DNA from: Bacteroidota bacterium
Lineage (GTDB): Bacteria > Bacteroidota > Bacteroidia > Bacteroidales > GCA-2748055
Length of the DNA stretch: 64,000 nucleotides
Direction of reading: 5' to 3'
Assembly (NCBI GenBank): GCA_002748055.1
Contig: PDRI01000096.1
Location: 13,432 to 77,431, forward strand
Position numbers and translations under genes: made by a program. The stretch's first letter is position 1. Each line of letters opens with the position of its first letter. Under the pieces are notes generated by a model. It saw only the letters and a program-made list of their open reading frames with translations, searched no databases and was not told the origin of the DNA. Shown piece after piece: positions 3,838 through 40,459 of this stretch.

Positions 3838-5157
3838 ATGACGAAAGAAGAAAAATACAGCATCGCGAAATGGGCCATGGAGCACGCGCTTAAGCATGGC
3901 GCTCAGGAGGCCAGCGTATCTATTTACAACAACAACAGTTCCCGCATTGAGGTCAGGGAGGAAAAAATCGACAAGCTGGAAGAAGCCAATCGCAACAATA
4001 TGCGCATTGCCCTCTACGTAGACAATAAGTACTCCAGCATCTCCACGAGCCGCATCAACAATAAGGACGAACTCGGCCGCTTTATCGAAGAAGCCATCGC
4101 CGGTACCCGCTACCTGTCGGAAGATGAGTTCCGCAGCCTGCCCGATCCTTCGCTCTACTACAAAGGCGACGGACCCGACCTGAAGACTGTCGACGAAGGC
4201 TTCAGCTCGGTCGATCCGGCTCAGAAGATCGAACATGCCTTTAACACCGAAAAAGAGGTCCTCGGCAGCGATGATCGCATCGTCTCGGTCTCCAGCACCT
4301 ACAGCGATGGACAAAGTGGGAATGTGATGGTCAGCAGCAACGGTTTTGAGGGCGATACCGAAAACACCTATTTTTCAATGGTGGCCTCCGTATCGGTAAA
4401 AAGCGACGACGCCCGGCCTCAGTCCTACTGGTACGAATCCTCGATTTTCCATAAGGACCTGCCCTCAAAGGGGATCGGGAAGATGGCACTGAAAAGGGCC
4501 CTCGACAAACTGGGACAGGCTAAGATCGAGTCGGGACGCATGCCGATGATTGTGGAAAACCGGCAAGCGGGCCGCACCCTCAGTCCACTTATTTCGGCGC
4601 TGAACGGATACAGCATTCAACAAAAGAACTCCTTCCTGATTGATATGGAGGGTGAGAAAATTGGGTCCGATCTACTCGATTTGGTGGACGATCCCTTTAT
4701 TATTTCCGGACGCGGTTCCAGGCATTTCGACCGCGAGGGACTGGCCATGCAAAAGCGTTCCATCATTGAGAGGGGCGTACTGAAATCCTATTACATCGAC
4801 ACCTATTATGGCAAGAAGCTCGGCATGGCTCCTACCTCGGGCAGTACCTCCAATCTGGTCTTTAAACCGGGAAGCAAGAGCCTTGATGAACTCATCGCCG
4901 ATCAGAGCCGTGCCATTTTGGTTACCGGCTTCAATGGTGGCAACTCGAATGGGGTAACCGGCGACTTCTCCTACGGGATTGAAGGCTTTCTGGTGGAGAA
5001 CGGAAAACTAACCAGGCCGGTGTCAGAAATGAACATCACCGGCAACTACCGCCAGGTATGGAAAGACCTGATCGCTGTAGGCAATGACGTCTACACGGGG
5101 TCGTCCTGGATGATGCCCAGCATGGTCTTTGCTAACATCGACTTCAGCGGCATCTGA
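3838..5157 (+). CDS. pmbA: PmbA/TldE-family (peptidase U62) protein, no signal peptide
   Basis: 439 aa, 17 nt after tldD. C-terminal GDFSYGIEGFLVENGKL motif matches the PmbA/TldD fold. The N-terminus MTKEEKYSIAKWAMEH is not signal-like. Confidence 0.8.
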   Translation: MTKEEKYSIAKWAMEHALKHGAQEASVSIYNNNSSRIEVREEKIDKLEEANRNNMRIALYVDNKYSSISTSRINNKDELGRFIEEAIAGTRYLSEDEFRSLPDPSLYYKGDGPDLKTVDEGFSSVDPAQKIEHAFNTEKEVLGSDDRIVSVSSTYSDGQSGNVMVSSNGFEGDTENTYFSMVASVSVKSDDARPQSYWYESSIFHKDLPSKGIGKMALKRALDKLGQAKIESGRMPMIVENRQAGRTLSPLISALNGYSIQQKNSFLIDMEGEKIGSDLLDLVDDPFIISGRGSRHFDREGLAMQKRSIIERGVLKSYYIDTYYGKKLGMAPTSGSTSNLVFKPGSKSLDELIADQSRAILVTGFNGGNSNGVTGDFSYGIEGFLVENGKLTRPVSEMNITGNYRQVWKDLIAVGNDVYTGSSWMMPSMVFANIDFSGI

Positions 5158-5191
5158 TGGCCGCCTGAACCCGGCGTGCCCGGATACACAC

Positions 5192-5230
5192 ATCCCGCCG
5201 ACGGCAGTCAATCCCCGGCGGGATTCTTTT
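5192..5230. terminator. hairpin between convergent pmbA and GH29 genes, likely bidirectional terminator
   Basis: ATCCCGCCG (5192-5200) pairs with CGGCGGGAT (5216-5224), followed by TCTTTT. Confidence 0.55.
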
Positions 5231-5243
5231 GTGAGCACAGCCC

Positions 5244-6626
5244 TCAGGGCTCCCGCTCCGAAGACCTGTAAAGAGAAATAGTGATGCCCTGGGGTTCAGC
5301 AAGGGCATCCTCAATCACCAGGCGCAGCGACCGGCAGCTATACAGGTCGGTGCGCAAGAGACGCTTGTAGCCGATGGTGGTTCCGGATGTGATTGTCTTC
5401 CAGTCGCCTTCGGAAGGAAGTTCGATTCGAAAGCGGCTCACTCGCTGACCCTTGCTGATATCTTCCCGAATCTCGATGCGGTCGAAGGCAGACTCGCCTG
5501 GGAGGATAAGATCATAAATCCAATGACAGTCCTCCGTCCTGGACTCTTCCAATTCGGCACCGGCCGCCAGGTCCTTTGCAAAGGTCTCGTCCAGGATACT
5601 CCGGAAGGTGGCCAGATGTGCCACATCGGTTTCGTGAATAAGGCCCCGTCGGTCGGGAGGAAGGTTGAGCAAAAGGACAGCGTTTCGGCCAACCGACTTA
5701 TAGTAGATGTCGATCAGCTCTTCCGGCGTTTTCACCAGGCTGTCTTCATCGGCATGATAGAACCAGCCAGGGCGAATCGACACGTCGCATTGCCCGATTA
5801 TCCAGCAGTTGCCCCAGGGCTCGCCGGTATTCAGGTATTCCGGATCCGAAGCTCCGATAAACAGTTGGCTACTGTCTATGGTCGACCAGAAGGTTTCACC
5901 GGCAAAGCCGTGCTCGTTGCCAACCCAGCGCAGATCGGGGCCCGCATCAGAAAAGATCTTGATCCCGGGTTGTAAGTCCTTTACCAGCGCCACCGTATGC
6001 GGCCAATCGTAGTAGGACTTCTTGTCGACCTCCCTGGTTTCATTGGCTCCGCCATAGTAACCGTCACCACCATTTGCGCCATCGAACCATATCTCGTTTA
6101 TTTCGCCATAGCGGGTAAGCAATTCGCGTAGCTGATTCCGGAAATAATCGATGTAAGCCGGGCTCCCATAGTCTGCATGATTCCGGTCCCAGGGCGAAAG
6201 GTAAAGCCCTACCTTGAGCCCATGCTTCCGGCAGGCCGCGACAAACTCCCCGACAATATCACCCTTCCCATCCTTGTAGGGGCTGTTCTTAATGCAATGC
6301 TCGGTGTACTCACTCGGCCACAAACAGAAACCGTCATGATGTTTTGCCGTCAGAATCAATTCTTTCAGTCCGCCTGCCTTGGCAGCCAGGACCCACTGCT
6401 CTGCATCCAATTCGGTCGGATTAAAAATGGCGGGGTCCTCGTCCCCATATCCCCATTCCTTATTGGTAAAGGTATTCACCGTGAAATGAATAAAGCCAAC
6501 CTGCTCCAATTGCTGGTAGGCAAGCTGTCTGGAGCTGGGCTTTACCAAGCCGGGACTATATGTCTTGCAGGCAGGCAGGGAGAGGACTAAAACAACGACC
6601 AGAAAAAATGAAATTTTATTTCGCAT
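5244..6626 (-). CDS. alpha-L-fucosidase, GH29 (subfamily-B-like) with C-terminal F5/8-type-C-like domain
   Basis: Signal peptide with lipobox (LSLPAC). GFIHFTVNTF...WGYG, AKHHDGFCLWPS and EIWFDGANG are typical of GH29. Confidence 0.85.
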   Translation of the reverse strand: MRNKISFFLVVVLVLSLPACKTYSPGLVKPSSRQLAYQQLEQVGFIHFTVNTFTNKEWGYGDEDPAIFNPTELDAEQWVLAAKAGGLKELILTAKHHDGFCLWPSEYTEHCIKNSPYKDGKGDIVGEFVAACRKHGLKVGLYLSPWDRNHADYGSPAYIDYFRNQLRELLTRYGEINEIWFDGANGGDGYYGGANETREVDKKSYYDWPHTVALVKDLQPGIKIFSDAGPDLRWVGNEHGFAGETFWSTIDSSQLFIGASDPEYLNTGEPWGNCWIIGQCDVSIRPGWFYHADEDSLVKTPEELIDIYYKSVGRNAVLLLNLPPDRRGLIHETDVAHLATFRSILDETFAKDLAAGAELEESRTEDCHWIYDLILPGESAFDRIEIREDISKGQRVSRFRIELPSEGDWKTITSGTTIGYKRLLRTDLYSCRSLRLVIEDALAEPQGITISLYRSSEREP

Positions 6627-6661
6627 CTAATTAATATTTAGGCAGTTATTCACAAACAAAG

Positions 6662-7345
6662 CTAATTTCTCAGAAACTCAACGGTGACCCCTGCACTGTC
6701 GGCCTTCGAATCCAGATGCTGGTCGCGGACCTCTACTCCCAGATTAAAAACGCTAAAGGCAGAGGCATGCAGGGCAGCCGTATCGACCATGGTTAAAACC
6801 CCTCCTGCCTGGCTAAGGCCAAAAATACCCTCTTCGTTTCCATTGTAAATACGAAACAGCAATGCCTGCTGAGGCTCAGGGTCATAAGCCTCGAGTAAAG
6901 CAATCGTATCGCCCGGAGCTGCCATTGGACCGAAGGAAAATTGCTGGTCGGGACAGACCGGCGGAAACTCGTTCAGATCGCGCAATTGAATGGAAACAGT
7001 AACAACCGTTTCCATGGGATCATTCGGATGATCATCGGTGGCAGTCACCTCCAGACTCAGCTCCGGATGCGCTTCGTAGTCGAGCTCCCGCGGATCAGCA
7101 ACAGACAGGTGTCCGCTGCGTGCATCCAAATCGAAGGTGCCCGCTCCATTTCCCCCTGTAATGCGAAGGCTGAAACTTTGGCCCTCGTCGAGTTCATAGC
7201 CGGAAACAACCCCGACAATGGTGCCGGCTGGGCTGTTCTCATCAAGCCTAAAGGTCTGGTCCTCGACAAAAGGCGGGTTCGTATTCTCCTCCGTGCAGGA
7301 TCCCAATAACACTGCCATGGCAAGGACAATGATGATCTGCTTCAT
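6662..7345 (-). CDS. cadherin-repeat lipoprotein
   Basis: MKQIIIVLAMAVLLGSC lipobox followed by acidic TEEN. Two repeats of the LDENSPAGTIVG...DYE...L.V.A.D type. Confidence 0.6.
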   Translation of the reverse strand: MKQIIIVLAMAVLLGSCTEENTNPPFVEDQTFRLDENSPAGTIVGVVSGYELDEGQSFSLRITGGNGAGTFDLDARSGHLSVADPRELDYEAHPELSLEVTATDDHPNDPMETVVTVSIQLRDLNEFPPVCPDQQFSFGPMAAPGDTIALLEAYDPEPQQALLFRIYNGNEEGIFGLSQAGGVLTMVDTAALHASAFSVFNLGVEVRDQHLDSKADSAGVTVEFLRN

Positions 7346-7359
7346 CCCTTCGCTTCCTT

Positions 7360-8109
7360 TCAGATACGGGGTTGCGCCTTCAGATGGGCAATGGCCTTTT
7401 TAGCTGCCGGTGCAATCCGCAGCGCAAATTGCCTGGGCCAGGGATTCCGGGCCGAGCGATCCATCATTTCACCGGGTGCCGGCAGACAGATGAAGTTGCT
7501 GTTCTTCCAGATAATCGTTTTCTCAACAATCTCCCCGGTAATAAAGCTTTGGGCCTCTTCCAGGCTTACCAGGAGCATGTTGGCAATGACCTCTGCCCCC
7601 ATCAAAACAATTGCAAGGGGATTGGCAATCTCAATTTCGTCACGAATCCACTTCATGCTGTTGTTGGCATATTCCATAAAATGAGAACGCTGTTCCTGAA
7701 TTTCTACCCCGAGGCGATGATATTTCTTCACCTGCAACTCGTCGAATAAGTGCACCTTTACCATGGAGGTGAGCCAGCATTCGTCCCGCTCAATTCCCAG
7801 GGCTTCCAGAATGACCTCGTCGAGCTCCTGCCCGACCAGGGAACTGCGTACCTGCGATCCATCGTAATAGGCTTCTGTAGAAAAAGGAGCATTTGAATTG
7901 CCTACCGGAACATCCGGAATATCGTCTATGGTGTTCATTCGCACACCGGGCAGGGGTGCAATAATCATGATTTTTCCAACCGCTGTTTCAATCGGAATAA
8001 CCGGAGACACAGGATTGCCATACACGTATTTTAGTTCGGAGGGGAATTGTATGCTCTGACAGTAGTCTGTAAAACACTGCTTCTGGAACTGGTGAATCGT
8101 CATGAACAA
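7360..8109 (-). CDS. hypothetical cytoplasmic protein, possibly uracil-DNA-glycosylase-superfamily fold
   Basis: 249 aa with no signal peptide. IMIIAPLPG and ICLPAPGEMM loosely resemble UDG/MUG motifs A (GxxPG) and B (xPSxx). Weak similarity judged by eye only. Confidence 0.3.
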   Translation of the reverse strand: MFMTIHQFQKQCFTDYCQSIQFPSELKYVYGNPVSPVIPIETAVGKIMIIAPLPGVRMNTIDDIPDVPVGNSNAPFSTEAYYDGSQVRSSLVGQELDEVILEALGIERDECWLTSMVKVHLFDELQVKKYHRLGVEIQEQRSHFMEYANNSMKWIRDEIEIANPLAIVLMGAEVIANMLLVSLEEAQSFITGEIVEKTIIWKNSNFICLPAPGEMMDRSARNPWPRQFALRIAPAAKKAIAHLKAQPRI

Positions 8110-8161
8110 GACCTTTTGGGGATTGAGTTTTCAAATTACGATTTTCTTTGCAATTCTCCCC

Positions 8162-9259
8162 TCAATCGGCTACGAAACAAAAGGAAGATGGCACAATCCC
8201 GGTCCTAAGCGTATCCAGAGGCCCGGCCCGGGGACTGAGCCGATAAACCATTCCGCGCTGTATAAAGTCGATCGCATCGGCGACATAGACCTCCGAGGAA
8301 AAGGGGTCAATACCCAGGCCGTAATACCCGCCCGTCATGGAATTCCCGTATGGACTGGGCAGAAAACACTCGGGCCGGGAAGCAAGCACAGACATGCGGT
8401 ACACATCCCTGTTCAGGAAGTAAAGCGTATCGCCCCCTGCTGTGATCTGCAACTCGGAAGGATTATCGGCCTGGTCGAAACGAAGGATCTGAACAGCCGC
8501 CTTTTCACCTGAACGGATTCTGTATAGTCCAGGTGCTTCGTGTCCAAAAGGATTGCCCTCATAGCCGCCGTCACATAGTACCCATATACTCCCATAACGA
8601 TCCATAACCATGGAATTCGGCTGCAGGCCTACCCGGATCGAATCAACCAGCCGGTCCTCAACAGCATCAATTACCAGAATCTGGTTGTCAAAACTCCAGC
8701 AATTCACAAAGACATAGCGACCCTGCTGTAACATCATCTCCGTAGAATGTCGATTGAAAGCGCCTCCTTCCAGTTCCACATCAATCGATGAGAGCAAATC
8801 GAAGCTGCGCGGATTCACCACGGAAATGGCCCGGGCATAGAGATCCGAAACATAAGCCTTTTCATCGCTCAAAAAATGCATGTATCTGGGCGATGTCAGA
8901 CCGGTGATCTTGCCACGGAAAGCAAAGTTGCGATGATCGATCACCATCACTTTTCCACTGTTGTTCACAACAATATAGGCAAGGCTGTCGCGGATGAGCA
9001 TAGACTGCGCCACATCACCCAGGGGCAGGCCATTGGTCTGGTAGAAAACCTCATTTAGCAAGTCGCCGCTTCCCGGATCATAGTAACTCAAAGAGGCATT
9101 GTCGTATGTGAAATTACCCTCATGGAGGATGAAGACCCCCCCTGCGGGCCTCTTATAGTGCAGGTGTTCGTAATCCCAAAGGGCACTGTCGTCCATGCAG
9201 GAGCGGAACAGGAGCAGGGTCATCGTCCCGCCAATAATGTATAGCCATCTCAGGTTCAC
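8162..9259 (-). CDS. beta-propeller (YncE/BtuG-like) putative surface lipoprotein
   Basis: Start overlaps the stop of the upstream TonB receptor by 4 nt. N-terminus LLLFRSC followed by MDDS. Repetitive beta-strand-rich sequence (YVAD, YVSDLY, IVVNN, ILVID). Sits in a cobalamin-riboswitch operon. Confidence 0.5.
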   Translation of the reverse strand: MNLRWLYIIGGTMTLLLFRSCMDDSALWDYEHLHYKRPAGGVFILHEGNFTYDNASLSYYDPGSGDLLNEVFYQTNGLPLGDVAQSMLIRDSLAYIVVNNSGKVMVIDHRNFAFRGKITGLTSPRYMHFLSDEKAYVSDLYARAISVVNPRSFDLLSSIDVELEGGAFNRHSTEMMLQQGRYVFVNCWSFDNQILVIDAVEDRLVDSIRVGLQPNSMVMDRYGSIWVLCDGGYEGNPFGHEAPGLYRIRSGEKAAVQILRFDQADNPSELQITAGGDTLYFLNRDVYRMSVLASRPECFLPSPYGNSMTGGYYGLGIDPFSSEVYVADAIDFIQRGMVYRLSPRAGPLDTLRTGIVPSSFCFVAD

Positions 9260-11250
9260 AGCTCGAATTGAAGAAGTAAGTAATAGTGCCTTCCGGGCAT
9301 GGGACGAAACAAGACGGAATGATAAGCCTCATCGAAGAGGTTATGGACTTTTAGTTCGAGCCGGAAGTCCATCTTCAGAAGCCTGAACTCAGCTCCTGCC
9401 GAAAGATCGTTCATGAAATAGGGATAAAGCCGGTGCCTGCTTGTCGGATCATTGCTGGAACTGGTAAAACGTTCGCTATAGCTATTGTGCTGCCAGCTTA
9501 AAAAGAAGCTGCGATAAGCCACCCGGAAAAAGGCATTTCCGGAATGAAGCGGAGTATAAACCAATTGCTTGCCATAGGATTCATCTCCCCAGACCAGGGG
9601 ATCGCCATAGTTTAGGGCACGGCTCAGCGCATACTGGCCCCCAAAACGATAGGCTACAGGGCCTGCAGTCCCATTCAGCTTCAGACCGGCCTCAAATCCG
9701 GTGGTCTCAACCCGGCGAATATTCATAGGCTCCCAATAGCCCTTGAACGAAGGAATCCATAGAATCCAGTTATGAATGTCGGAACGAAAAACAGTCAATT
9801 CACTCTCCCATTCCAATCGCGGAATCCCTCCGCTCCAGGCCAGCCCCGCTTCCATACTGAACCCCTCTTCGGGCAAGAGGCCGGGATTCCCTCCCGGCTG
9901 CCAGTAAAGGTCGTTCAGTGTGGGTTGGTGATAATTCCTTGCCAGGTGGGCCTTCAGGAACAGATTTCGGTCTCTGATCAATTTGAAATCGGCCCCGACA
10001 AAAGGAATCACCGGTACCCGCCTGCCTTCGATCCACTCCTGCCTCAGCATCAAATTAATCGTAAATCGCTCCCGGAATTTTCTTCGGGCCGAAAGCAGAA
10101 AGGACCATTCATTCCGCTGCCGCTCGTAAGCCAGCCCTGTGACCCTGTCATGCGACGAAACATCGTGGAAACGGGCATCTATGGTAGCCTCCAGTTCCAG
10201 TTTTGTTCCCACATCGGGGAAAAGCGAAAGGGTATTCATCCAGCTTTGCTGCCTGCCAATAGCGTAAATACTGGTATCGAGCCCGAGCCCGGCGATCCGG
10301 TTTCGTTGAATGAAATCGAGCCGCTTACTGGCATAGCCCGTACGAAGCAGCAGCTGTCCCCTGTCGCCATAGCCCTTCCAGTCGGCTACCAGCCTGTGGT
10401 CAATATCGGTCTGCTTGTTCAGGTTGGCATTATCGGGCCCTTCATAACTGCTTGGCTTCGGAATTACACGCGCGGCAGCCTGGGCCCAGTACTTGATAGA
10501 AAGCAGCTGTGATGCAGCAGGACGATAGTAAAACTCCTGCAGAAGCCCGTAACGCCGATAAGAGGCATTGCCATTGGTATCGATCGGATGCACAATCTCT
10601 CCGCTCAGGGGATCGATTTCCCCGATCCCGTAGTTTACAAATGTGTAATTGTTCGCCGAGCTGTTGTGGTACATTCGGGTCTTGCTCCGGAAAACCTTCT
10701 TCCCGAAGCCTGCAAAAAGATACTCATCCAATGTTCGGTAGCTTCCGATGCCCTGGCTGTATTTCAGTGATCTTCCCTGGTCCCAGCCCGGACTGTTCCC
10801 GATCCTGATCGATCCGCCCATTCCCCCGCTGCGATCGGCCAGAGAAGCCGCACCATGACGAAGACTCAGCTCATCAATAATGTACACCGGCACAAGCGAA
10901 AAATCAACCATCCCGGTCATCGGGCTGTTCAAATCGATCCCGTTCCATTGTACCTGGGTATGGGAAGGCGAAGTCCCCCGGAAGGAGGCCGTTGCCAGGG
11001 CCCCCCGGCCATGATTCTTAATAAAAACAGAGGTGTTTTGGGACAGAAGTTCGGAAAGGGAAGCACTCATCTGGTGCTGGAGAATCGTGGTATCGACAAC
11101 GGTAGCCTTTGCCCCTGCATCCTCAACCCGACTGGCCCTGATCTCGACCTGCTCAATCTGCACCGTATCCTGCAGCTCCTGGGCGGAAATGCTTCCGATA
11201 CAAAGCAGCAATACCGGCACAATCCGAAAAACCTGTCTCGGGGGCTTCAT
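9256..11250 (-). CDS. btuB: TonB-dependent outer-membrane receptor, BtuB-like (cobalamin/corrinoid)
   Basis: Start moved to ATG at 11250 (MKPPRQVFRIVPVLLLCIGSISAQE), 1 nt after the upstream stop. Plug-like N-terminus, beta-barrel repeats and terminal aromatic (LLLQFEL). Assignment to B12 rests on the upstream riboswitch. Confidence 0.7.
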   Translation of the reverse strand: MKPPRQVFRIVPVLLLCIGSISAQELQDTVQIEQVEIRASRVEDAGAKATVVDTTILQHQMSASLSELLSQNTSVFIKNHGRGALATASFRGTSPSHTQVQWNGIDLNSPMTGMVDFSLVPVYIIDELSLRHGAASLADRSGGMGGSIRIGNSPGWDQGRSLKYSQGIGSYRTLDEYLFAGFGKKVFRSKTRMYHNSSANNYTFVNYGIGEIDPLSGEIVHPIDTNGNASYRRYGLLQEFYYRPAASQLLSIKYWAQAAARVIPKPSSYEGPDNANLNKQTDIDHRLVADWKGYGDRGQLLLRTGYASKRLDFIQRNRIAGLGLDTSIYAIGRQQSWMNTLSLFPDVGTKLELEATIDARFHDVSSHDRVTGLAYERQRNEWSFLLSARRKFRERFTINLMLRQEWIEGRRVPVIPFVGADFKLIRDRNLFLKAHLARNYHQPTLNDLYWQPGGNPGLLPEEGFSMEAGLAWSGGIPRLEWESELTVFRSDIHNWILWIPSFKGYWEPMNIRRVETTGFEAGLKLNGTAGPVAYRFGGQYALSRALNYGDPLVWGDESYGKQLVYTPLHSGNAFFRVAYRSFFLSWQHNSYSERFTSSSNDPTSRHRLYPYFMNDLSAGAEFRLLKMDFRLELKVHNLFDEAYHSVLFRPMPGRHYYLLLQFEL

Positions 11251-11251
11251 C

Positions 11252-12664
11252 TTAGCGCTTGATAACTTTAATCCGATGCGTTCCGGCAGCTCCGTCAATC
11301 GAAACAATGTAAACCCCGGAAGGAAGATCGCTTAAGTCGAGGAGGGCAGGTGAAGTCTGTGGGCGGAACTGCTTCAAACAAATGCCCGATAAGGAGTAAA
11401 GAGCAAGCCCCCGGCCGGAAGCCCCACGAACGTACAATACATCGGTCAGGGGATTCGGGTAGACGGCAATCGCTTTGTCGCTTCCAAAAGAGTGGATACG
11501 GGTCGGCGCAACTACGCTTGTAATGGCATCAGCAAAGATATCGGGATTGCTACGCAGGCTTGCCCTCAGCTGCAACTCGCCCTCACTAAGCACAGAGAGA
11601 ACCAGATGTTCATCAACCTTTGCATCACCTTGACTGACGGTCCAGTCCACTTCCGGCAGAGCTTGCAGGCGGCCATTGGAAAAATAAAAGAGTTCGAGCT
11701 GGTGCCGGCCTGTATCGATTTGAAGTGGCAGGTCGCGGATAAGCAGAATCTCCATGCACCCTTCCCAACCAGGTGATGGGCTCACGAGGACAGCACCCGT
11801 AATCTCGGTGGAGACCTCTCCAAGCCAGCCACCATCGGCCTGCATGGCCGATTGCACTTTTACAAAGTGGATTTCGTCCAAATCGACATACCGCCCGCTG
11901 CTGTCCACCGCCCAGGAAATATCAAAGGCATCGCCCCCGGCATTTTCCCTTTCCAGGGTATAGGGATTGTCCGGATAATCGTAAGGTGCTTTCCCCCGCA
12001 GCCGATTATCGGCATAGCCAAAAGCCCGGTGCAGGGAACGCTCCCTGATTGGATTACGATCGTCGCGCATCCCGCTTATCCGGATCCCCTCCAAGCTAAA
12101 GCTGTCGGACCCGATCGACGGAAAAGAATCGGGCAGGGGATAATAGCTTTGGGTATGCGCAGCATTGGTCCGAATGCTTGCACTGTCACCGGAAGTGCTG
12201 GTCCAGGGCACATCCCTGGCCTCATCTCCTCCCGGGTTGTAGTAGGTGACCCTGTACCCGGTTTGGGTATGCGAAAAGAAATAATCGCTGCCTGCAAGGG
12301 CATACCACTGGTCGTCGGGCAGGCCATTTTGGTTCTCATCCTTCATCACCCAAACAACACCAGGCTCCGACCAGTCGGGCAGGGCGTTTCCAAAAATACT
12401 GAAGTCGACACCGAAAGGATGGTCGGGATGGTTCTCCACCGGCCGATCGAAGGAAAACACAACGGAACCCCCAAAGGCTCCCAGGCTTAACAAGCCTGAA
12501 ACTCCATCACAAATTGAAAAAACCGACCGGGGCTGCCCCCCGGTCGGTGTATTAATAAACTGTCCCGGAGCAGGTAGGTAAGACCAAACTGTATCGATGT
12601 ATTGCGCACTGGCCGTCAGCGGCAGAAAAAGACACAGGAACGCAACCTGCAGGGAAGTTCTCAT
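11252..12664 (-). CDS. secreted protein with T9SS C-terminal sorting domain (unknown function)
   Basis: Signal peptide MRTSLQVAFLCLFLPLTASAQ. The C-terminus VYPNPLTDVLYVRG...LSDLPSGVYIVSIDG...RIKVIKR matches the Por_Secre_tail pattern. Start is 1 nt after the upstream stop. Confidence 0.7.
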   Translation of the reverse strand: MRTSLQVAFLCLFLPLTASAQYIDTVWSYLPAPGQFINTPTGGQPRSVFSICDGVSGLLSLGAFGGSVVFSFDRPVENHPDHPFGVDFSIFGNALPDWSEPGVVWVMKDENQNGLPDDQWYALAGSDYFFSHTQTGYRVTYYNPGGDEARDVPWTSTSGDSASIRTNAAHTQSYYPLPDSFPSIGSDSFSLEGIRISGMRDDRNPIRERSLHRAFGYADNRLRGKAPYDYPDNPYTLERENAGGDAFDISWAVDSSGRYVDLDEIHFVKVQSAMQADGGWLGEVSTEITGAVLVSPSPGWEGCMEILLIRDLPLQIDTGRHQLELFYFSNGRLQALPEVDWTVSQGDAKVDEHLVLSVLSEGELQLRASLRSNPDIFADAITSVVAPTRIHSFGSDKAIAVYPNPLTDVLYVRGASGRGLALYSLSGICLKQFRPQTSPALLDLSDLPSGVYIVSIDGAAGTHRIKVIKR

Positions 12665-12665
12665 C

Positions 12666-14162
12666 CTAAAGTTTCTGAATCAGTTGCCTGTGAACCTCAC
12701 CCGCAGATTCTACCAGGATGAGATATGATCCCGGCTTAAGCGCGGAGATATCGAGGCTGGCTTCTGATCCCTTCAGGTCGATGCTGCGCAGACAGGTCCC
12801 CTGGAGATTGTAGAGTTTCACACTGGCACGATCACCGGCAGAGCGAACATAAAGCAGCTCGCGGGCCGGATTCGGATACAGTTTAATGTGTGTCAGACTG
12901 TTCACATCCATGCCCACCGTTGAAGTCAGGCTGATCATGATGGTATCATTAACCATCTTGCCATTGGATTGCGCCTCAACGACAATGCAGGCATTTCCAC
13001 TGCGCTCAGTGGCAAAACTCAGATGCAGGGTATCGTTGGAAATACTTGCAGTGACCAGTGATTCATCACTATTGCTTAGCACGCTACAATCGATATCCTC
13101 ATCGGGATCGTCCGGATCACTGAAAACACCGGCAAGCGCCAGCAGGGAATCAGCACTCGGATCTGTCAGGTCGATGTCAGCCATGGGATTGGCCACTATT
13201 GGAAGGTAGTCCATGTGAAGCTCATTGAGTGGGGTGCCCCCGGCATAGGTATAAACTGCATTCCCGGGCGATGGTTCTGCAAATGAACCTCGAGTCTCAA
13301 TGCTCATAAGCCAGGATGCAGAAGTGGCCAGAGTATCGAGCTGAATACCATCCCCTGCTGTTCCATTCCACCGGGTAAGCGCCTGATTCGAACCTCCCCA
13401 GATATTCAGGTTGACAAACACATCACCATTCGCATCCACCGCACAATCACCTGCCCCGGCGGGCAAATCGGAGAGTTTCACGGCATCATCCAGATCCAGC
13501 GGAAGGGCATCCGTATCATTGATTACAGCAGAAAGGGCGACACTGTCCCACTGAACCAGAACATTGGGGTCCATCGAATAGGAAGTCCCGCAATAAAGGT
13601 CTCCCATCTGATCGACTGACATACCCGTAGAGTATCCACCAATCTTGATCAGTTCACGATGCTGATTGTTTCCACTGAGGTCTAGTAAGTAGATCCCACT
13701 GGGCGCACCGAACTCAGCATTATTGGTGCCGGAAACCAGAATCTGGTCATTCCAAAACTCCAGATCGTAGTTCGCCTGGAAGGCAGCCTTCTGGGTCCAG
13801 GAACCATCGCTCAGATCAACCTGATAAATACGGTCATCGGTAAATCCTGTTGTGGTAAAACCGGTCCACAGGCTTTTTCCGTCGGGGGATAAGGCCACAA
13901 AGCTGATAAAGTGCTTGGCCTCGTAATCGGTGGGTTCAAAAAACTTCCCCAGTTCTCTTCCGTCACGGGTATCGACAATCACAATACTGTCGGCGTTCTG
14001 AATCACCAGACAAGTGTCATTCAGATCGATAGCTCCGTTAATCAGATAATTCGGAAGCATTTCTGCTGCCTTGAAATCCTCTCTGGGTGACAGGATGCTT
14101 TGTGCTTGCACGGACAGCGCCATAAGGACGAGCCCAAGTGCCATAAGGTAAACCTTTTTCAT
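12666..14162 (-). CDS. secreted propeller-like protein with Ig-like domain and T9SS C-terminal sorting domain
   Basis: Signal peptide MKKVYLMALGLVLMALSVQAQ. The C-terminus KLYPNPARELLYVRS...ISALKPGSYLILVES...LIQKL is Por_Secre_tail-like. First gene after the riboswitch. Confidence 0.7.
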   Translation of the reverse strand: MKKVYLMALGLVLMALSVQAQSILSPREDFKAAEMLPNYLINGAIDLNDTCLVIQNADSIVIVDTRDGRELGKFFEPTDYEAKHFISFVALSPDGKSLWTGFTTTGFTDDRIYQVDLSDGSWTQKAAFQANYDLEFWNDQILVSGTNNAEFGAPSGIYLLDLSGNNQHRELIKIGGYSTGMSVDQMGDLYCGTSYSMDPNVLVQWDSVALSAVINDTDALPLDLDDAVKLSDLPAGAGDCAVDANGDVFVNLNIWGGSNQALTRWNGTAGDGIQLDTLATSASWLMSIETRGSFAEPSPGNAVYTYAGGTPLNELHMDYLPIVANPMADIDLTDPSADSLLALAGVFSDPDDPDEDIDCSVLSNSDESLVTASISNDTLHLSFATERSGNACIVVEAQSNGKMVNDTIMISLTSTVGMDVNSLTHIKLYPNPARELLYVRSAGDRASVKLYNLQGTCLRSIDLKGSEASLDISALKPGSYLILVESAGEVHRQLIQKL

Positions 14163-14270
14163 AAGCTGTACTTTTTAATGAATTAAACATACAGCAAGCG
14201 GAGATGAGTTGAAGTCAAAATAGATGTTGTGACCAGCTTCCCGTTCACCGCGGGCTGCAAAAAAAACGTC

Positions 14271-14475
14271 TCATCACTGGCAGGTCTTCTGACTTGTCCA
14301 TGCTTTCGACGCCTTCCCGTTCGAGTCCCGGCCGGACCTGAGTGAACAGTGGCACATTGCCGAAAGCTGTTTGGCCCGGAGAGGGCCTGGATTCACAGCA
14401 GCGGGAACTGTTGCCGATTCTAACGGCATTCCCTTTTCATCCCTGACGCATTCGCGAAACGGAAACCAATGATGA
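14271..14475 (-). promoter_or_regulatory. cobalamin (B12) riboswitch
   Basis: The minus-strand RNA reads UCAUCAUUGG...AAAAGGGAAUGCCGUUAGAAUCGGCAACAGUUCCCGCUGCUGU...GCCACUG...GGGAAGGC...AAGUCAGAAGACCUGCCAGUGAUGA. It contains the conserved GGGAA core, the GCCACUG/GGGAAGGC pair, the B12 box (AGUCAGAAGACCUGCC) and a P1 helix closing 14475-14466 with 14280-14271. Confidence 0.85.
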
Positions 14476-14477
14476 TT

Positions 14478-14485
14478 CAAAAATA
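14478..14485 (-). promoter_or_regulatory. Bacteroidota -7 promoter box (TAnnTTTG) for the riboswitch operon
   Basis: The minus strand reads TATTTTTG ending 3 nt before the P1 5' arm of the riboswitch. Confidence 0.45.
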
Positions 14486-34881: not shown

Positions 34882-37800
34882 ATGAAAAGAGTTTATCCCC
34901 TTCTTCTCGGACTCCTCATCCTGATTGCCTGCAACGAAAAAAAGCCGCAATCCCCGACCGAAATAGACACAGCCTTTACTTCCTATGTCTCCGGATTTAC
35001 AAGTGGGGTGGTTTCCACAACCGCAGATATCAGCATCCGCCTGGTCTCGGAACTTCCTGAATCACAACGCAATGAGCTCCTTGAAAAAGCGCTCTTTCAG
35101 ATCAGGCCCGCACTCAAGGGAACACTCGTCTGGCTGGATAACAGAACCCTGGCCTTCAGGCCCGAACACAAAATGGAACCGGGCACAAACTATTCCTGCC
35201 GGTTCCGGCTCGACAAGCTCCTAGATGTCCCTGCTCGACTCGGCACTCTGGAATTCGAATTTCGAACCATGGCACAGGCTATGGCGGTTGAAATCGGTGG
35301 AATGACCTGCCTTGATGAAGAAGACCTTTCCTGGCAGCAGCTTTCGGGTATCCTGCGTACAGCCGACTTTGCCGATGCTGAAGCGATTGAACAAAGCCTC
35401 GAAGGCAGGCAAAAAGGAAGAATGCTTGGCATCGAATGGACACACAGCGAAGATGGAAGAACCCATGCTTTTAGGATCGATAGCATCGCCCGAAACGACG
35501 AAAAAGGAGAGCTTAACCTGCAATGGAAGGGCGAAGCCCTGGGATGCAGGGATGAGGGTAGTGAAACTGTCAGCATCCCCGCCCTGAACGAATTTACCCT
35601 TATGAAGGTGAATGTGGTACAACAACCCGAACAATACATCAGTGTATTCTTCTCGGATCCGGTTCGAAGAAACCAGGAACTGAATGGTCTGATCTATCTG
35701 TCGACAGAAGACGCCCTGAACTTTGAGCGCAGGGGCAACGAGGTCAGGTTGCATCCACAAAACCGCCTGGAAGGTGACAAAATACTCTATATTGACCGGG
35801 GACTCAGGAACAGCCTCGGCTATGCCCTTCCGAAAGAGTATCGCGAAGAGCTTCAGTTCACCAGCCTGGATCCGGCAGTTGAACTAATCGGTGATGGGGT
35901 TATTCTGCCCGGAAACGAGGGCTGGGCCTTCCCCTTCAGAGCAGTTAACCTTTCGGCAGTCAATCTGAAAATCATCAGGATTTACGAAGAAAACATCCCC
36001 CAGTTTTTCCAGGTAAACCAATACAGTGGAAGAGATGAACTGAGCCGGGTAGGACGCCTGGTGCTGAAGAAAGAAATCAAACTCACTGCAGACCGCCCCA
36101 TCGACTATGGTAAATGGAACCTTTTCTCGCTCGATCTGTCGGAACTCATCAAGGCCGCCCCTGGTGATATGTTCCACATCAGCCTGTCCTTCGACCGCAG
36201 CCAATCGCTTCTGCCATGTGCAAAAGAGGGGGCAGATGATTCCCTACGCGATGAAAACGAATCCGGCCACGGGGTGTCAGGTAGCGATGATCCCGAGATG
36301 GCTGTTTACGACAATCCTGTTTCCGATGGATATTACTGGAACGATTGGGAAGACTTCAACTGGTATGAGCGGGACGACCCCTGTACAGATGCTTATTACA
36401 TTTACAAGAAGAACCAGCACGAACTTGAACGGAATGTACTGGCCTCAAATCTGGGTATCATTGCCAAGCACGGGGAAGGGCAATCCCTTTTTGTCGCAGT
36501 AACGGATCTTGTGAATGCCAATCCGCTGAGCAATGTCGAAATAGAAATCTACAACTACCAACATCGCCTGCTTGGCAATGCAAAAACCGACCAGCAGGGA
36601 ATGGCCGAAATTCCTCTGGACAGAAAACCCTTTCTGCTGATTGCTAAACATGGGGCCCAACGGGGTTATCTCCGTCTCGACGATGGTTCATCCCTGTCGA
36701 CCAGCATGTTCGATGTTAGCGGGCAGCGGAATGAGCGCGGCATTGAAGGCCATTTGTATGGCGAACGGGGCGTCTGGCGACCGGGCGATTCTCTCTACCT
36801 TACCTTCGTGCTGGAGGATCCCCTCGGACAATTGCCCCAGGACCATCCGGTACGTTTTGAGTTATACAGTCCGGATATGCACTTGCAACAAAGCCGCACC
36901 CTGACCCACAACCTGAATGGGGTGTACGATTTCAGAACGGCTACCGAACCCGACGCAGTAACCGGAACCTGGCTGGCAAAAATCAGGGTTGGCGGACAAA
37001 ACTTCAGCAAAACCCTGCGCATCGAAACTGTAAAACCAAATCGCCTGAAGATCGGGCTCAACTTCGACAACCCCATCCTGCAACAGGGACGAAATCCCGG
37101 AACCATTCAGGCTCGCTGGCTGCATGGAGCAACTGCCGGAGACCTGAATGCCGATATTGAACTGGAGCTTAAGGCTGCTAACACTCCCTTCCCCGATTAT
37201 CCGGACTACCATTTCAACGATCCCTCGAAGTCATTCGAATCAACGGCCAGGCAGATTTATTCGGGCCGGCTTGATGCCGGGGGAGAGGCGCGCATCTCAG
37301 CCCTCATCGACGTTGAGGACCAGGCCCCGGGCATGCTTCAGGCGCGTTTTAAAACGCGGGTCTTTGAGCGCTCCGGCGATTTCAGCGTGGACAGGCAGAA
37401 TGTGCCTTTTGCGCCCTACCACCGCTTTGTCGGCGTCAAGGTTCCCAAAGGACCGGGCTGGAATGGAGCCCTCTATTCGAACGAAAGCAATATGATCCCC
37501 ATCGTGAGTGTCGATGCCCATGGCCGCCCGGTTGATATCTCCAACCTGAGGGTGGAAATTTTCGATGTCAACTGGCGCTGGTGGTGGGACCGTGATCAGA
37601 GCGACGACCTGGGTTCCTTTGTCAGAAACAGAAGTGAACACCTGGTCAGAAGTGGGCGCATCGCAACGGTGAATGGCAAGGCCATGTACGAACTGCGCTT
37701 CGATGAAGAACAGTGGGGACGAAAGCTAATTCGCATTAGCGACCCCAATGGTGGCCACAGCTGTGGACAAACCTTCTATGTAAGCTACAAGGGATATTGG

Positions 37801-40449: not shown

Positions 40450-40459
40450 GCAGTCCCGG

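Follow-up and report, generated by a model that had tools for sequence, protein, structure and literature searches.

A cobalamin-riboswitch operon of a Bacteroidota bacterium that joins BtuB and BtuG to two accessory proteins with predicted T9SS sorting

The operon presented here can be compared with locus 2 of Bacteroides thetaiotaomicron, which has the composition BtuJ2-BtuH2-BtuL-BtuG2-BtuB2-BtuFCD-BtuX. Cobalamin riboswitch control is common to both loci, and both contain a BtuB-BtuG core, with sequence matches at about 1e-100. In locus 2 the genes of accessory extracellular B12 binders precede that of the transporter; this arrangement recurs in the present operon, where the accessory proteins are putative binders. 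The BtuH2 domain has been shown experimentally to bind B12 (PMC8941943), and DUF4465 proteins bind it as well (PMC13398666, PMC12751083). The accessory proteins of Bacteroides are all lipoproteins with an export signal (PMC12751083, PMC13616437), whereas the two accessory proteins of this operon, designated P1 and P2, have a signal-peptidase-I site and a C-terminal T9SS sorting domain (CTD). In existing work BtuG, BtuH, BtuJ and BtuK are deployed solely as surface lipoproteins or in vesicles, and accounts of the Bacteroides BtuBG/BtuH/BtuJ capture system involve lipoproteins alone. To our knowledge, gut Bacteroides, the source of nearly all work on B12 capture in Bacteroidota, lack the T9SS.

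Judged from its sequence, the operon is a variant of this capture system with predicted T9SS sorting. No description of a T9SS-tailed B12 capture operon was found in the searchable literature, and a term search of a set of papers on BtuH, BtuJ, DUF4465 and B12 uptake returned no mention of the T9SS.

The operon, its leader and the BtuB-BtuG core

The window analysed is a stretch of 64,000 nt from contig PDRI01000096.1 (assembly GCA_002748055.1, positions 13,432-77,431). All coordinates are given within this window and all features described below are on the minus strand. ORF calling found four tightly packed genes behind a cobalamin riboswitch, as described in an earlier note on this DNA. The riboswitch aptamer (14262..14485) matches RF00174 with 98.1 bits and E 3e-23 over the full model (1-189), the gathering score being 31.5 bits, and is the sole Rfam match in the 64-kb window. 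It is followed by the genes of P1 (12666..14162, 498 aa), P2 (11252..12664, 470 aa), BtuB (9256..11250, 664 aa, ATG start at 11250) and BtuG (8162..9259, 365 aa, GTG start); the btuG gene has a 4-nt overlap with the stop of btuB. The earlier note had assigned to the third gene both a length of 683 aa and a 1-nt junction with P2. These values belong to different starts: the ORF called at 9256-11307 gives 683 aa from a TTG, while the 1-nt junction fits the ATG and the 664-aa product.

A promoter-like -7 box, TATTTTTG (14478..14485), directly abuts the aptamer. It fits TAnnTTTG, the Bacteroides -7 consensus. By itself this motif shows no enrichment in the window (21 matches, 27.6 expected). Of 58 related loci, 35 have TAnnTTTG at exactly this distance from the aptamer, and the variant TAnnTTTA is frequent among the remaining related loci listed. 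There is no evident -33 TTTG upstream of the box. On the 3' side of the aptamer there is a conserved hairpin, GCAGCCCGCGGTGAACGGGAAGCTG (14234..14258), preceded by a run of eight T residues at 14259-14266. The same hairpin sequence, GCAGCCYGCGGWGAACRGGAAGCTGATCA, recurs behind the aptamer in the majority of the 70 related loci listed, and it is probably an element of the expression platform. The folding of the leader was no better than that of shuffled sequences.

The third gene, recognized earlier as a TonB-dependent receptor, can be assigned by sequence to BtuB, the TonB-dependent B12 transporter of the Bacteroidota type. Residues 24-659, near full length, match BtuB2 (8BMX_C) with E 4.3e-109, and BtuB3 (8P98_A) is matched with E 1.2e-102. 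The plug domain scores 49.2 bits and the best NCBIfam match is TonB-B12; the scores are below the equivalog cut-offs, which were built on E. coli-type BtuB. The fourth gene, the β-propeller lipoprotein of the earlier note, corresponds to BtuG, a surface lipoprotein with a YncE/DUF5074-type β-propeller predicted to cap BtuB. Residues 15-362 match B. thetaiotaomicron BtuG2 (8BMX_D) with E 6e-106, further matches are 8BN0, 8BAZ, 3DSM and 8P97_B, and DUF5074 (PF16819) scores 71.9 bits. The lipoprotein residue C21 is invariant in the family alignment and is followed by an acidic stretch at +2 to +5. The btuFCD genes, previously noted as missing from the operon, were found neither there nor among the subset of window ORFs scanned with Pfam, and no T9SS machinery genes (GldK/L/M/N, SprA/Sov, PorU/V) were seen among the window ORFs scanned, again a subset.

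The accessory proteins P1 and P2

The P2 protein consists of a Sec signal (residues 1-20, signal-peptidase-I type, cleavage between ASA and QYI), a BtuH-type B12-binding globular domain (residues 19-292, nt 11789-12610), an Ig-like domain (residues 293-395, nt 11480-11788) and a T9SS type-A CTD (residues 398-470, nt 11255-11473). Residues 19-289 match the B12-binding domain of BtuH2 (7BIZ_A) with E 1.3e-35, and BtuGH (8BLW_B) is matched with E 2e-35. The same two proteins are the top Foldseek matches of the P2 model, 7BIZ (E 1.5e-17, 33% identity) and 8BLW, with E about 1e-17; they are the only specific ones, and the next, unrelated match has E 9e-6. These results allow us to assign to P2 a BtuH2-type B12-binding globular domain, and P2 itself would be expected to bind B12. 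The earlier note could name the family of neither T9SS protein. This remains the case for P1 but not for P2, whose family was probably missed because no Pfam model matches the BtuH-type domain.

The B12 contacts of BtuH2 are Q333, N399, F401, H476, Y510, W511, W577 and L578 (PMC8941943). The chain index of 7BIZ is the residue number minus 100, which was checked in the alignment on H476, Y510/W511 and W577/L578. Six of these eight contacts map to Q35, N93, L95, H170, W280 and L281 of P2, five of them identical and one conservative, and the position of F401 is occupied by Leu or Met in the P2 family. Over 88 family domains, the Q and N residues are both conserved in 88/88, H in 81/88, W in 71/88 and L in 79/88. 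The residues Y510 and W511 are without a conserved counterpart and fall in a variable loop (P2 residues 198-233) of low model confidence. The affinity or specificity of P2 may therefore differ from that of BtuH2.

The P1 protein is organized similarly, with a Sec signal (residues 1-24, signal-peptidase-I type, cleavage between VQA and QS), a β-propeller designated P1N (residues 28-318, nt 13209-14081), an Ig-like domain (residues 330-413, nt 12924-13175) and a T9SS type-A CTD (residues 426-498, nt 12669-12887). The AlphaFold model (pLDDT 89) has six four-stranded blades, in agreement with the earlier description of P1 as propeller-like. Foldseek returned only generic propellers, and no sequence relatives of P1 were found in the PDB apart from the CTD. 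A BtuG-like propeller was considered and rejected: hhalign against BtuG gave a probability of 2.9%, BtuG is seven-bladed, and its structures are absent from the top 50 Foldseek matches. P1 also has a weak match to a DUF5074 protein, confined to the Ig-like domain and the CTD. Assignment to BtuJ/DUF4465 was also rejected, as P1 has no PF14717 match; PF14717 is present in P1 relatives of about 725-820 aa.

By sequence, P1N belongs to a small unnamed propeller family, which in relatives is joined to DUF4465 (BtuJ-type) or to BtuH-type B12-binding domains, the latter in loci L022 and L023. The first-gene slot of the operon is occupied by a cassette of proteins with T9SS tails, assembled from P1N, DUF4465 and BtuH-type domains, with the layouts DUF4465+CTD, P1N+DUF4465+CTD and DUF4465+BtuH domain+CTD in relatives. 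P1N-type propellers are found with PEP-CTERM anchors too, in proteins not resembling those of Bacteroidota. The suggested link of P1 to corrinoids comes only from its operon position and the domain fusions in relatives.

Both the Sec signals and the Por_Secre_tail-type sorting domains proposed earlier for the two leading proteins were confirmed, the former by signal-peptidase-I sites read directly from the sequence. The scores of P1 and P2 are 42.3 and 30.7 bits for PF18962 (cut-off 27) and 41.0 and 39.9 bits for TIGR04183 (cut-off 23). In P1 the matches reach residues 490-492 of 498 and in P2 residues 463-470 of 470, which places them at the extreme C-terminus. PF18962 is present on almost all P2 relatives and most P1 relatives among the database matches listed, and a CTD query matches 80 of the 87 P2 homologues in the fetched loci. 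The signal-peptidase-I site, A or G before Q-Y-I, was found in 85 P2 homologues, and a lipoprotein Cys at the cleavage site was found neither in P2 nor in any of these 85. Both P1 and P2 are predicted to be secreted through the T9SS, to a surface or soluble location.

The same arrangement is retained in related loci, which were taken from one-genome-per-species contigs. A cobalamin riboswitch is located upstream of the P2 homologue, on the same strand, in 62 of the 62 loci with at least 3.5 kb of upstream sequence, and Rfam confirms the eight weakest of these calls with 82-108 bits. The BtuB gene comes next after P2 in 67/70 loci, followed by BtuG in 60/63. Homologues of P1, too, nearly always follow a cobalamin riboswitch and precede btuB and btuG. 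The T9SS-tailed B12-binding layout was found in at least 87 distinct loci examined, with 273 matching stretches in the one-genome-per-species collection. The carriers are Bacteroidia of sediment, marine and bioreactor origin, and the layout recurs in many environmental Bacteroidia. The computational checks that the earlier note had proposed, namely the CTD models, the co-occurrence with riboswitch, btuB and btuG, and the match to a BtuH domain, all gave favourable results.

Proposed mechanism and alternatives

The features described above allow us to propose, with a probability of roughly 0.8, that the operon encodes an outer-membrane module for corrinoid capture and import, induced by B12 starvation, in which accessory capture proteins, brought to the cell surface or the medium by the T9SS and not by lipidation, are added to the known BtuB-BtuG core. 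When corrinoid is scarce, the unliganded riboswitch would permit expression of the four genes. P1 and P2 would cross the inner membrane via Sec, and the cut by signal peptidase I would leave an N-terminal Gln. The type-A CTDs would direct them through the T9SS and be removed, with the proteins then attached to the surface or released. The BtuH-type domain of P2 would bind corrinoids and hand them over to the lipoprotein BtuG, which covers BtuB as a lid, and BtuB would import them with TonB energy; inner-membrane transport would be encoded elsewhere. P1 is most likely a partner or scaffold of P2, or an extra ligand- or carrier-binding module for it.

The fate of P1 and P2 outside the cell could differ from surface attachment. 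Both might be released as soluble, diffusible corrinoid carriers that pick up B12 at a distance and return it to BtuG/BtuB, a possibility toward which we do not lean. Cargo with a type-A CTD occurs both surface-attached and freely secreted, which counts in favour of release, and P2 has no other anchoring feature. In B. thetaiotaomicron, vesicles carrying BtuJ act 'analogously to siderophores' (PMC12751083). However, no sequence feature separates release from anchoring, a diffusible 50-kDa carrier would be costly in open water, and in Bacteroides BtuH2 occurs in the membrane fraction as well as in the supernatant (PMC8941943). Released carriers would be comparable, as proteins, to haemophores or to the B12-loaded Bacteroides vesicles. 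It can also be imagined, although we consider it unlikely, that soluble T9SS-released 'corrinophores' of environmental Bacteroidia, with BtuH-type and DUF4465 domains carried on P1N, collect cobamides at some distance from the cell and dock to BtuG/BtuB, and that P1N binds the corrinoid or strips the carrier. Vitamin piracy would then join the known roles of the T9SS, and B12-capture proteins would have a third route of delivery beside lipoproteins and vesicles. A periplasmic location is very hard to credit. The CTDs would then be unused, and P1 and P2 would be B12 binders standing in for the btuF missing from the operon; the lack of btuFCD and of T9SS machinery among the ORFs scanned would agree with this. 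Nevertheless, the occurrence of the CTD in related loci and database relatives indicates that it is under selection, both CTDs score above curated cut-offs, and an Ig-like spacer followed by a CTD is a layout typical of surface display. In addition, the characterised BtuH and BtuJ proteins act outside the cell (PMC8941943; 10.1101/2025.07.01.662609).

The ligands of the two proteins must also be considered. There is nearly an even chance that P1 handles no corrinoid and is a structural or docking partner like BtuL, with the ligand touched only by P2, BtuG and BtuB. P1 has neither a DUF4465 nor a BtuH-type domain, its propeller is unrelated to that of BtuG and resembles only generic ones, the first-slot gene is absent from 8 of 75 related operons and is without P1N in some others, and BtuL, which is encoded in the operon of B. 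thetaiotaomicron, does not bind B12 (PMC12751083). However, fusions of P1N to B12-binding domains recur, the propeller keeps the same slot, it has strongly conserved surface-type motifs, and BtuG is an example of a propeller that can bind B12. The BtuH-like domain of P2 might, in turn, have shifted to another ligand, such as a different tetrapyrrole or a corrinoid precursor like cobinamide, and not scavenge complete cobamides. The loss of the Y510/W511 equivalents in the variable loop and the substitution at F401 could be read in this way. This appears improbable, since Q35, N93, H170 and W280, the residues in contact with the phosphate, ribose and corrin amides, vary little or not at all, and the operon always has a cobalamin riboswitch in control and adjoins BtuB/BtuG.

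Comparison with known systems

The capture module proposed here provides a testable link between a major secretion system of Bacteroidota and competition for a micronutrient. It also suggests a BtuH-type B12-binding annotation for a large family that so far has no label other than 'T9SS type A sorting domain-containing protein', and P1N, a small new propeller family, becomes a candidate component of corrinoid capture.

The P2 protein shares the BtuH-type globular B12-binding domain with locus 2 of B. thetaiotaomicron. However, BtuH2 has N-terminal PKD domains, while in P2 the binding domain comes first and is followed by the Ig-like spacer. Locus 2 includes BtuFCD, which this operon is without, and here the gene order is BtuB then BtuG. 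The BtuGH protein (BtuG1, BT1490, 8BLW) is a fusion of a propeller with a BtuH-type domain and is comparable with the fusions of P1N and BtuH-type domains in relatives of this operon. Its propeller, however, is of the seven-bladed BtuG type, to which the six-bladed P1N is not detectably related. Moreover, BtuGH is one protein, while the P1 propeller and the BtuH-type domain of P2 are encoded by separate genes, each with its own CTD. The BtuJ/DUF4465 (PF14717) jelly-roll B12 binders occupy the same operon slot as P1 in relatives, but the published BtuJ proteins are lipoproteins, and P1 is without DUF4465.

A similar principle is found in HBP35 of P. gingivalis, a cargo protein with a type-A CTD whose ligand, haem, is a tetrapyrrole nutrient. 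In both cases a nutrient-binding protein has a C-terminal T9SS sorting domain, with binding and export predicted in the present operon. The two differ in that HBP35 has an unrelated fold and haem as ligand, and is associated neither with a riboswitch nor with a BtuB/BtuG pair.

The operon, its riboswitch and its leader

The operon consists of four open reading frames on the minus strand, preceded by a cobalamin riboswitch. The aptamer (14262-14485, minus strand) is recognized by Rfam over its full length with 98.1 bits against a gathering score of 31.5 (E 3e-23) and is the sole Rfam match in the window. The B12 riboswitch proposed in the earlier note is thus borne out. The first two frames encode P1 (12666-14162, 498 aa) and P2 (11252-12664, 470 aa). 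The third gene (9256-11307) codes for 683 residues from a TTG start or 664 residues from the ATG at 11250, and the fourth (8162-9259, 365 aa) begins with GTG and overlaps the preceding stop by 4 nt. The 1-nt junction described previously between the P2 gene and gene 3 holds with the ATG start, and the 4-nt overlap of genes 3 and 4 is seen as described. No btuFCD, DUF6580, T9SS machinery or additional sorting-domain proteins were found among the window ORFs examined.

The promoter-like box TATTTTTG at 14478-14485 (minus strand), reported from the first inspection of the sequence, is present and fits the Bacteroides -7 promoter consensus TAnnTTTG. This motif occurs 21 times in the window while 27.6 occurrences are expected, and judging it by its own statistics was dropped because it is not enriched. 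What speaks for the box is therefore its conserved position: 35 of 58 related loci share TAnnTTTG at this exact distance from the aptamer, with the variant TAnnTTTA being common among the remaining related loci listed.

The hairpin-forming element GCAGCCCGCGGTGAACGGGAAGCTG / GCAGCCYGCGGWGAACRGGAAGCTGATCA (14234-14258, minus strand) is located just past the aptamer, outside the Rfam model, and is conserved 3' of the aptamer in the majority of related loci. Possibly it is an L13-type kissing-loop partner of the riboswitch: the GGUG loop of this hairpin could pair with CCACUG of the aptamer, in the manner of kissing-loop cobalamin riboswitches. A run of eight T (14259-14266, minus strand) adjoins the hairpin. 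Read-out of the riboswitch by an intrinsic terminator was rejected, since a T run of at least five is present in just 13 of 70 relatives, so that the T8 run of the window is not conserved, and the leader folds no better than shuffled sequences.

The two distal genes are readily assigned by homology. Nearly all of gene 3 matches 8BMX_C (E 4.3e-109) and 8P98_A (E 1.2e-102), and by sequence it is a Bacteroidota-type BtuB. Gene 4 matches 8BMX_D with an E-value of 6e-106, which is BtuG2 in the solved B. thetaiotaomicron BtuB2-BtuG2 complex; further matches are 8BN0, 8BAZ, 3DSM and 8P97_B, and DUF5074 is found in its product. Cys21 is invariant in an alignment of 17 orthologues and acidic residues come right after it, which is the pattern expected of a surface lipoprotein. 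The gene 4 product is accordingly annotated by homology as BtuG.

The two leading proteins

Both P1 and P2 carry a T9SS type-A C-terminal sorting domain (CTD) at the extreme C-terminus. PF18962 scores 42.3 bits for P1 and 30.7 bits for P2 (cut-off 27), and TIGR04183 scores 41.0 and 39.9 bits, respectively (cut-off 23). The Por_Secre_tail-type ends recognized earlier from the sequence alone therefore exceed the curated cut-offs of both models.

Residues 19-289 of P2 align with residues 217-486 of 7BIZ_A and 392-654 of 8BLW_B, with an E-value of 1e-35. The first structure is BtuH2, the C-terminal globular domain of which binds B12 in the crystal (PMC8941943), and the second is BT1490, a BtuG-BtuH fusion (PMC10404256, PMC13616437). 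The same two structures are the sole specific Foldseek matches of the P2 AlphaFold model (pLDDT 73), with E about 1e-17 and 33% identity; the next matches, with E near 1e-5, cover the Ig-like and CTD parts. P2, for which no family could be named in the earlier note, thus has a BtuH-type domain according to both the 7BIZ_A alignment and Foldseek. No Pfam model matches this domain of P2, and this probably explains why the family could not be named.

The residues contacting B12 in BtuH2 are Q333, N399, F401, H476, Y510, W511, W577 and L578 (PMC8941943). They were mapped by taking the chain index as the residue number minus 100, and H376, Y410/W411 and W477/L478 of the 7BIZ chain sit where this rule predicts in the alignment with P2. 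Q333 and N399 correspond to Q35 and N93 of P2, both kept in 88 of 88 BtuH-type domains. H476 corresponds to H170 (kept in 81 of 88), L578 to L281 (79 of 88) and W577 to W280 (71 of 88, with nine other aromatics). F401 is replaced by L95, a position held by Leu or Met in 57 of the 88 domains. Y510 and W511 correspond to I206 and R207, which have no conservation across the 88 domains and fall in a variable loop (P2 residues 198-233) of low confidence in the model. It is therefore likely that P2 binds the corrin and nucleotide-loop part of cobamides, with an affinity and selectivity that may differ from those of BtuH2.

Within the P2 coding sequence, toward its 5' end (12522-12548, minus strand), the coding strand has a strong hairpin of 11 pairs, including nine G-C pairs, with a T run behind it. 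At this place P2 of the window has PTGG, compared with the nearly invariant PWG motif of the family. The hairpin could be a chance feature or an internal attenuator.

P1 was described earlier as propeller-like, and its model (pLDDT 89) is a confident six-bladed beta-propeller (residues 28-318) followed by an Ig-like domain (330-413) and the CTD (426-497). The Foldseek matches of P1 are all generic propellers, and sequence and profile searches against the PDB give CTD matches only. A BtuG-like propeller was rejected in view of the six blades, the profile-profile probability of 2.9% against the BtuG family (hhalign) and the absence of BtuG among the Foldseek matches. A weak match of P1 to a DUF5074 protein spans only the Ig-like domain and CTD. 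P0046, a DUF5074 protein of Candidatus Azobacteroides, has the Ig-like domain of P1 and a CTD-like tail in common with it. Assignment to DUF4465 was also rejected for the window copy, although many relatives carry this domain.

The P1 propeller alone, termed P1N, was searched exhaustively against 1.84 billion representative proteins; with just 174 relatives it is a small new propeller family. The Bacteroidota relatives are T9SS-tailed, and behind the propeller they have a BtuH-type domain, DUF4465 (in proteins of about 725-820 aa) or an apparent DUF5074/BtuG-type propeller (judged by eye; 955-1427 aa). Most of the fetched relatives of about 350-600 aa end in PEP-CTERM-like anchors. With T9SS tails in some relatives and PEP-CTERM-like anchors in others, P1N thus seems to be a propeller displayed at the surface via different sorting systems. 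What suggests a link between P1N and corrinoids is operon position and domain fusion.

Among these shorter P1N relatives (P0202-P0240, P0206, P0211, P0214, P0221, P0232), some have dockerin-like repeats, and the N-terminal segment of P0221 resembles the start of a BtuH-type domain (YAPAPG...). The giant proteins P0178, P0181 and P0194 combine P1N, DUF5074/BtuG-like segments (by eye), Ig-like repeats and a CTD. Together with P0046, they suggest that BtuG, too, has T9SS-tailed relatives.

Conservation of the module and its boundaries

Relatives were searched in a one-genome-per-species collection, giving 25 loci for P1 and 273 matching stretches for P2. The latter were cut down to the best 80, and once duplicates had been removed there were 87 P2-bearing loci. 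All P1 and P2 loci are from environmental Bacteroidia metagenome-assembled genomes, labeled Bacteroidales, Marinilabiliales, Lentimicrobiaceae, Salinivirgaceae or Prolixibacteraceae. A same-strand cobalamin riboswitch precedes the P2 homologue in 62 of the 62 loci with at least 3.5 kb upstream (nhmmer). The eight weakest calls were all confirmed by Rfam (82-108 bits), and in those loci, up to about 18 kb, the riboswitch is the sole Rfam match. BtuB is found immediately 3' of the P2 homologue in 67 of 70 loci, and BtuG is next after BtuB in 60 of 63. The co-occurrence with cobalamin riboswitches or btuB raised in the earlier note is thus found for the P2 homologues.

The CTD query matched 80 of 87 P2 homologues. 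This count is a minimum, since in neighboring first-slot proteins, for example in locus L064, Pfam detects CTDs that escaped the query. A signal-peptidase-I site, A/G↓Q-Y-I, is present in 85 P2 homologues and a cysteine at that position in none. Substrates of this peptidase in Bacteroidota often start with Gln.

Between the riboswitch and P2 lies a cassette gene whose content varies among loci. Over 75 loci, with forms having and lacking a CTD pooled because CTD detection is a lower bound, this first slot holds P1N with DUF4465 in about 33, P1N as in the window in 15 and DUF4465 in 12. The gene is absent in eight loci; DUF4465 is fused to the BtuH-type protein in five and P1N in two. In L038 (5234-5833, 184 bits) and L067 (2861-3409), a DUF6580 membrane protein comes first after the riboswitch, before the T9SS-tailed genes, and is a candidate inner-membrane component. 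L058, L060 and L075 (about 4800-9400) have the order riboswitch, btuG, riboswitch, P1N protein, P2 homologue, with two riboswitch-like matches each and no btuB directly downstream.

A UDG-superfamily gene (7360-8109, minus strand; 247-249 aa, without a signal peptide) lies 52 nt past btuG, and a cadherin-domain gene (6662-7345, minus strand; 227 aa, with a lipoprotein-like N-terminus) is found downstream of it. Roughly 26 distinct related loci have the former gene after btuG, and in about nine the latter occupies its position (e.g. L001-L005, L007, L027, L100). The UDG-like family is narrow: among its 174 matches, nearly every one of the 120 that are listed has a length of about 247 aa and an identity of 59% or more. 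By sequence it has no PDB relative. Extension of the operon to these two genes was considered and rejected. Loci L106 and L107 retain the UDG-like gene in the same chromosomal backbone, ahead of PmbA/TldD and 3-keto-disaccharide hydrolase genes, where the B12 operon is absent, and clade synteny is therefore the best reading of its adjacency to btuG. Elsewhere in the window (34882-42823, plus strand), a gene for a 1855-aa bacterial alpha-2-macroglobulin is followed by one for a PBP1C-type penicillin-binding protein, a commonplace pair with no bearing on the B12 operon.

Proposed mechanism and comparison with known systems

A type-A CTD sends a protein through the T9SS; the CTD is cut off there, and the protein is afterwards linked to the surface or released. 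The best-supported reading of the operon is a riboswitch-controlled BtuB-BtuG importer for which the T9SS would deploy accessory capture proteins. By analogy with Bacteroides, corrinoid would be handed over from P2 to BtuG and then to BtuB (PMC10404256, PMC13616437).

The published BtuG, BtuH, BtuJ, BtuK and BtuL are all lipoproteins of gut Bacteroides, and some such B12 lipoproteins are loaded onto vesicles (PMC12751083, PMC13616437, 10.1101/2025.07.01.662609). T9SS terms are absent from the term-searched papers on BtuH, BtuJ, DUF4465 and B12 uptake, and full-text searches combining T9SS with B12, BtuB, BtuG, BtuH, BtuJ or cargo, outside subscription journals, gave incidental co-mentions only. 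The database labels of the relatives are limited to 'T9SS type A sorting domain-containing protein', 'DUF4465 domain-containing protein' or 'hypothetical protein'. P2 has the B12-binding domain and the operon context in common with described BtuH proteins. However, it has no lipoprotein signal, which is one of their defining features. For these reasons P2 is filed as a putative T9SS-sorted variant working like BtuH and not as a plain BtuH orthologue. What is new here is a T9SS-sorted variant of known B12 capture, together with a small new propeller family.
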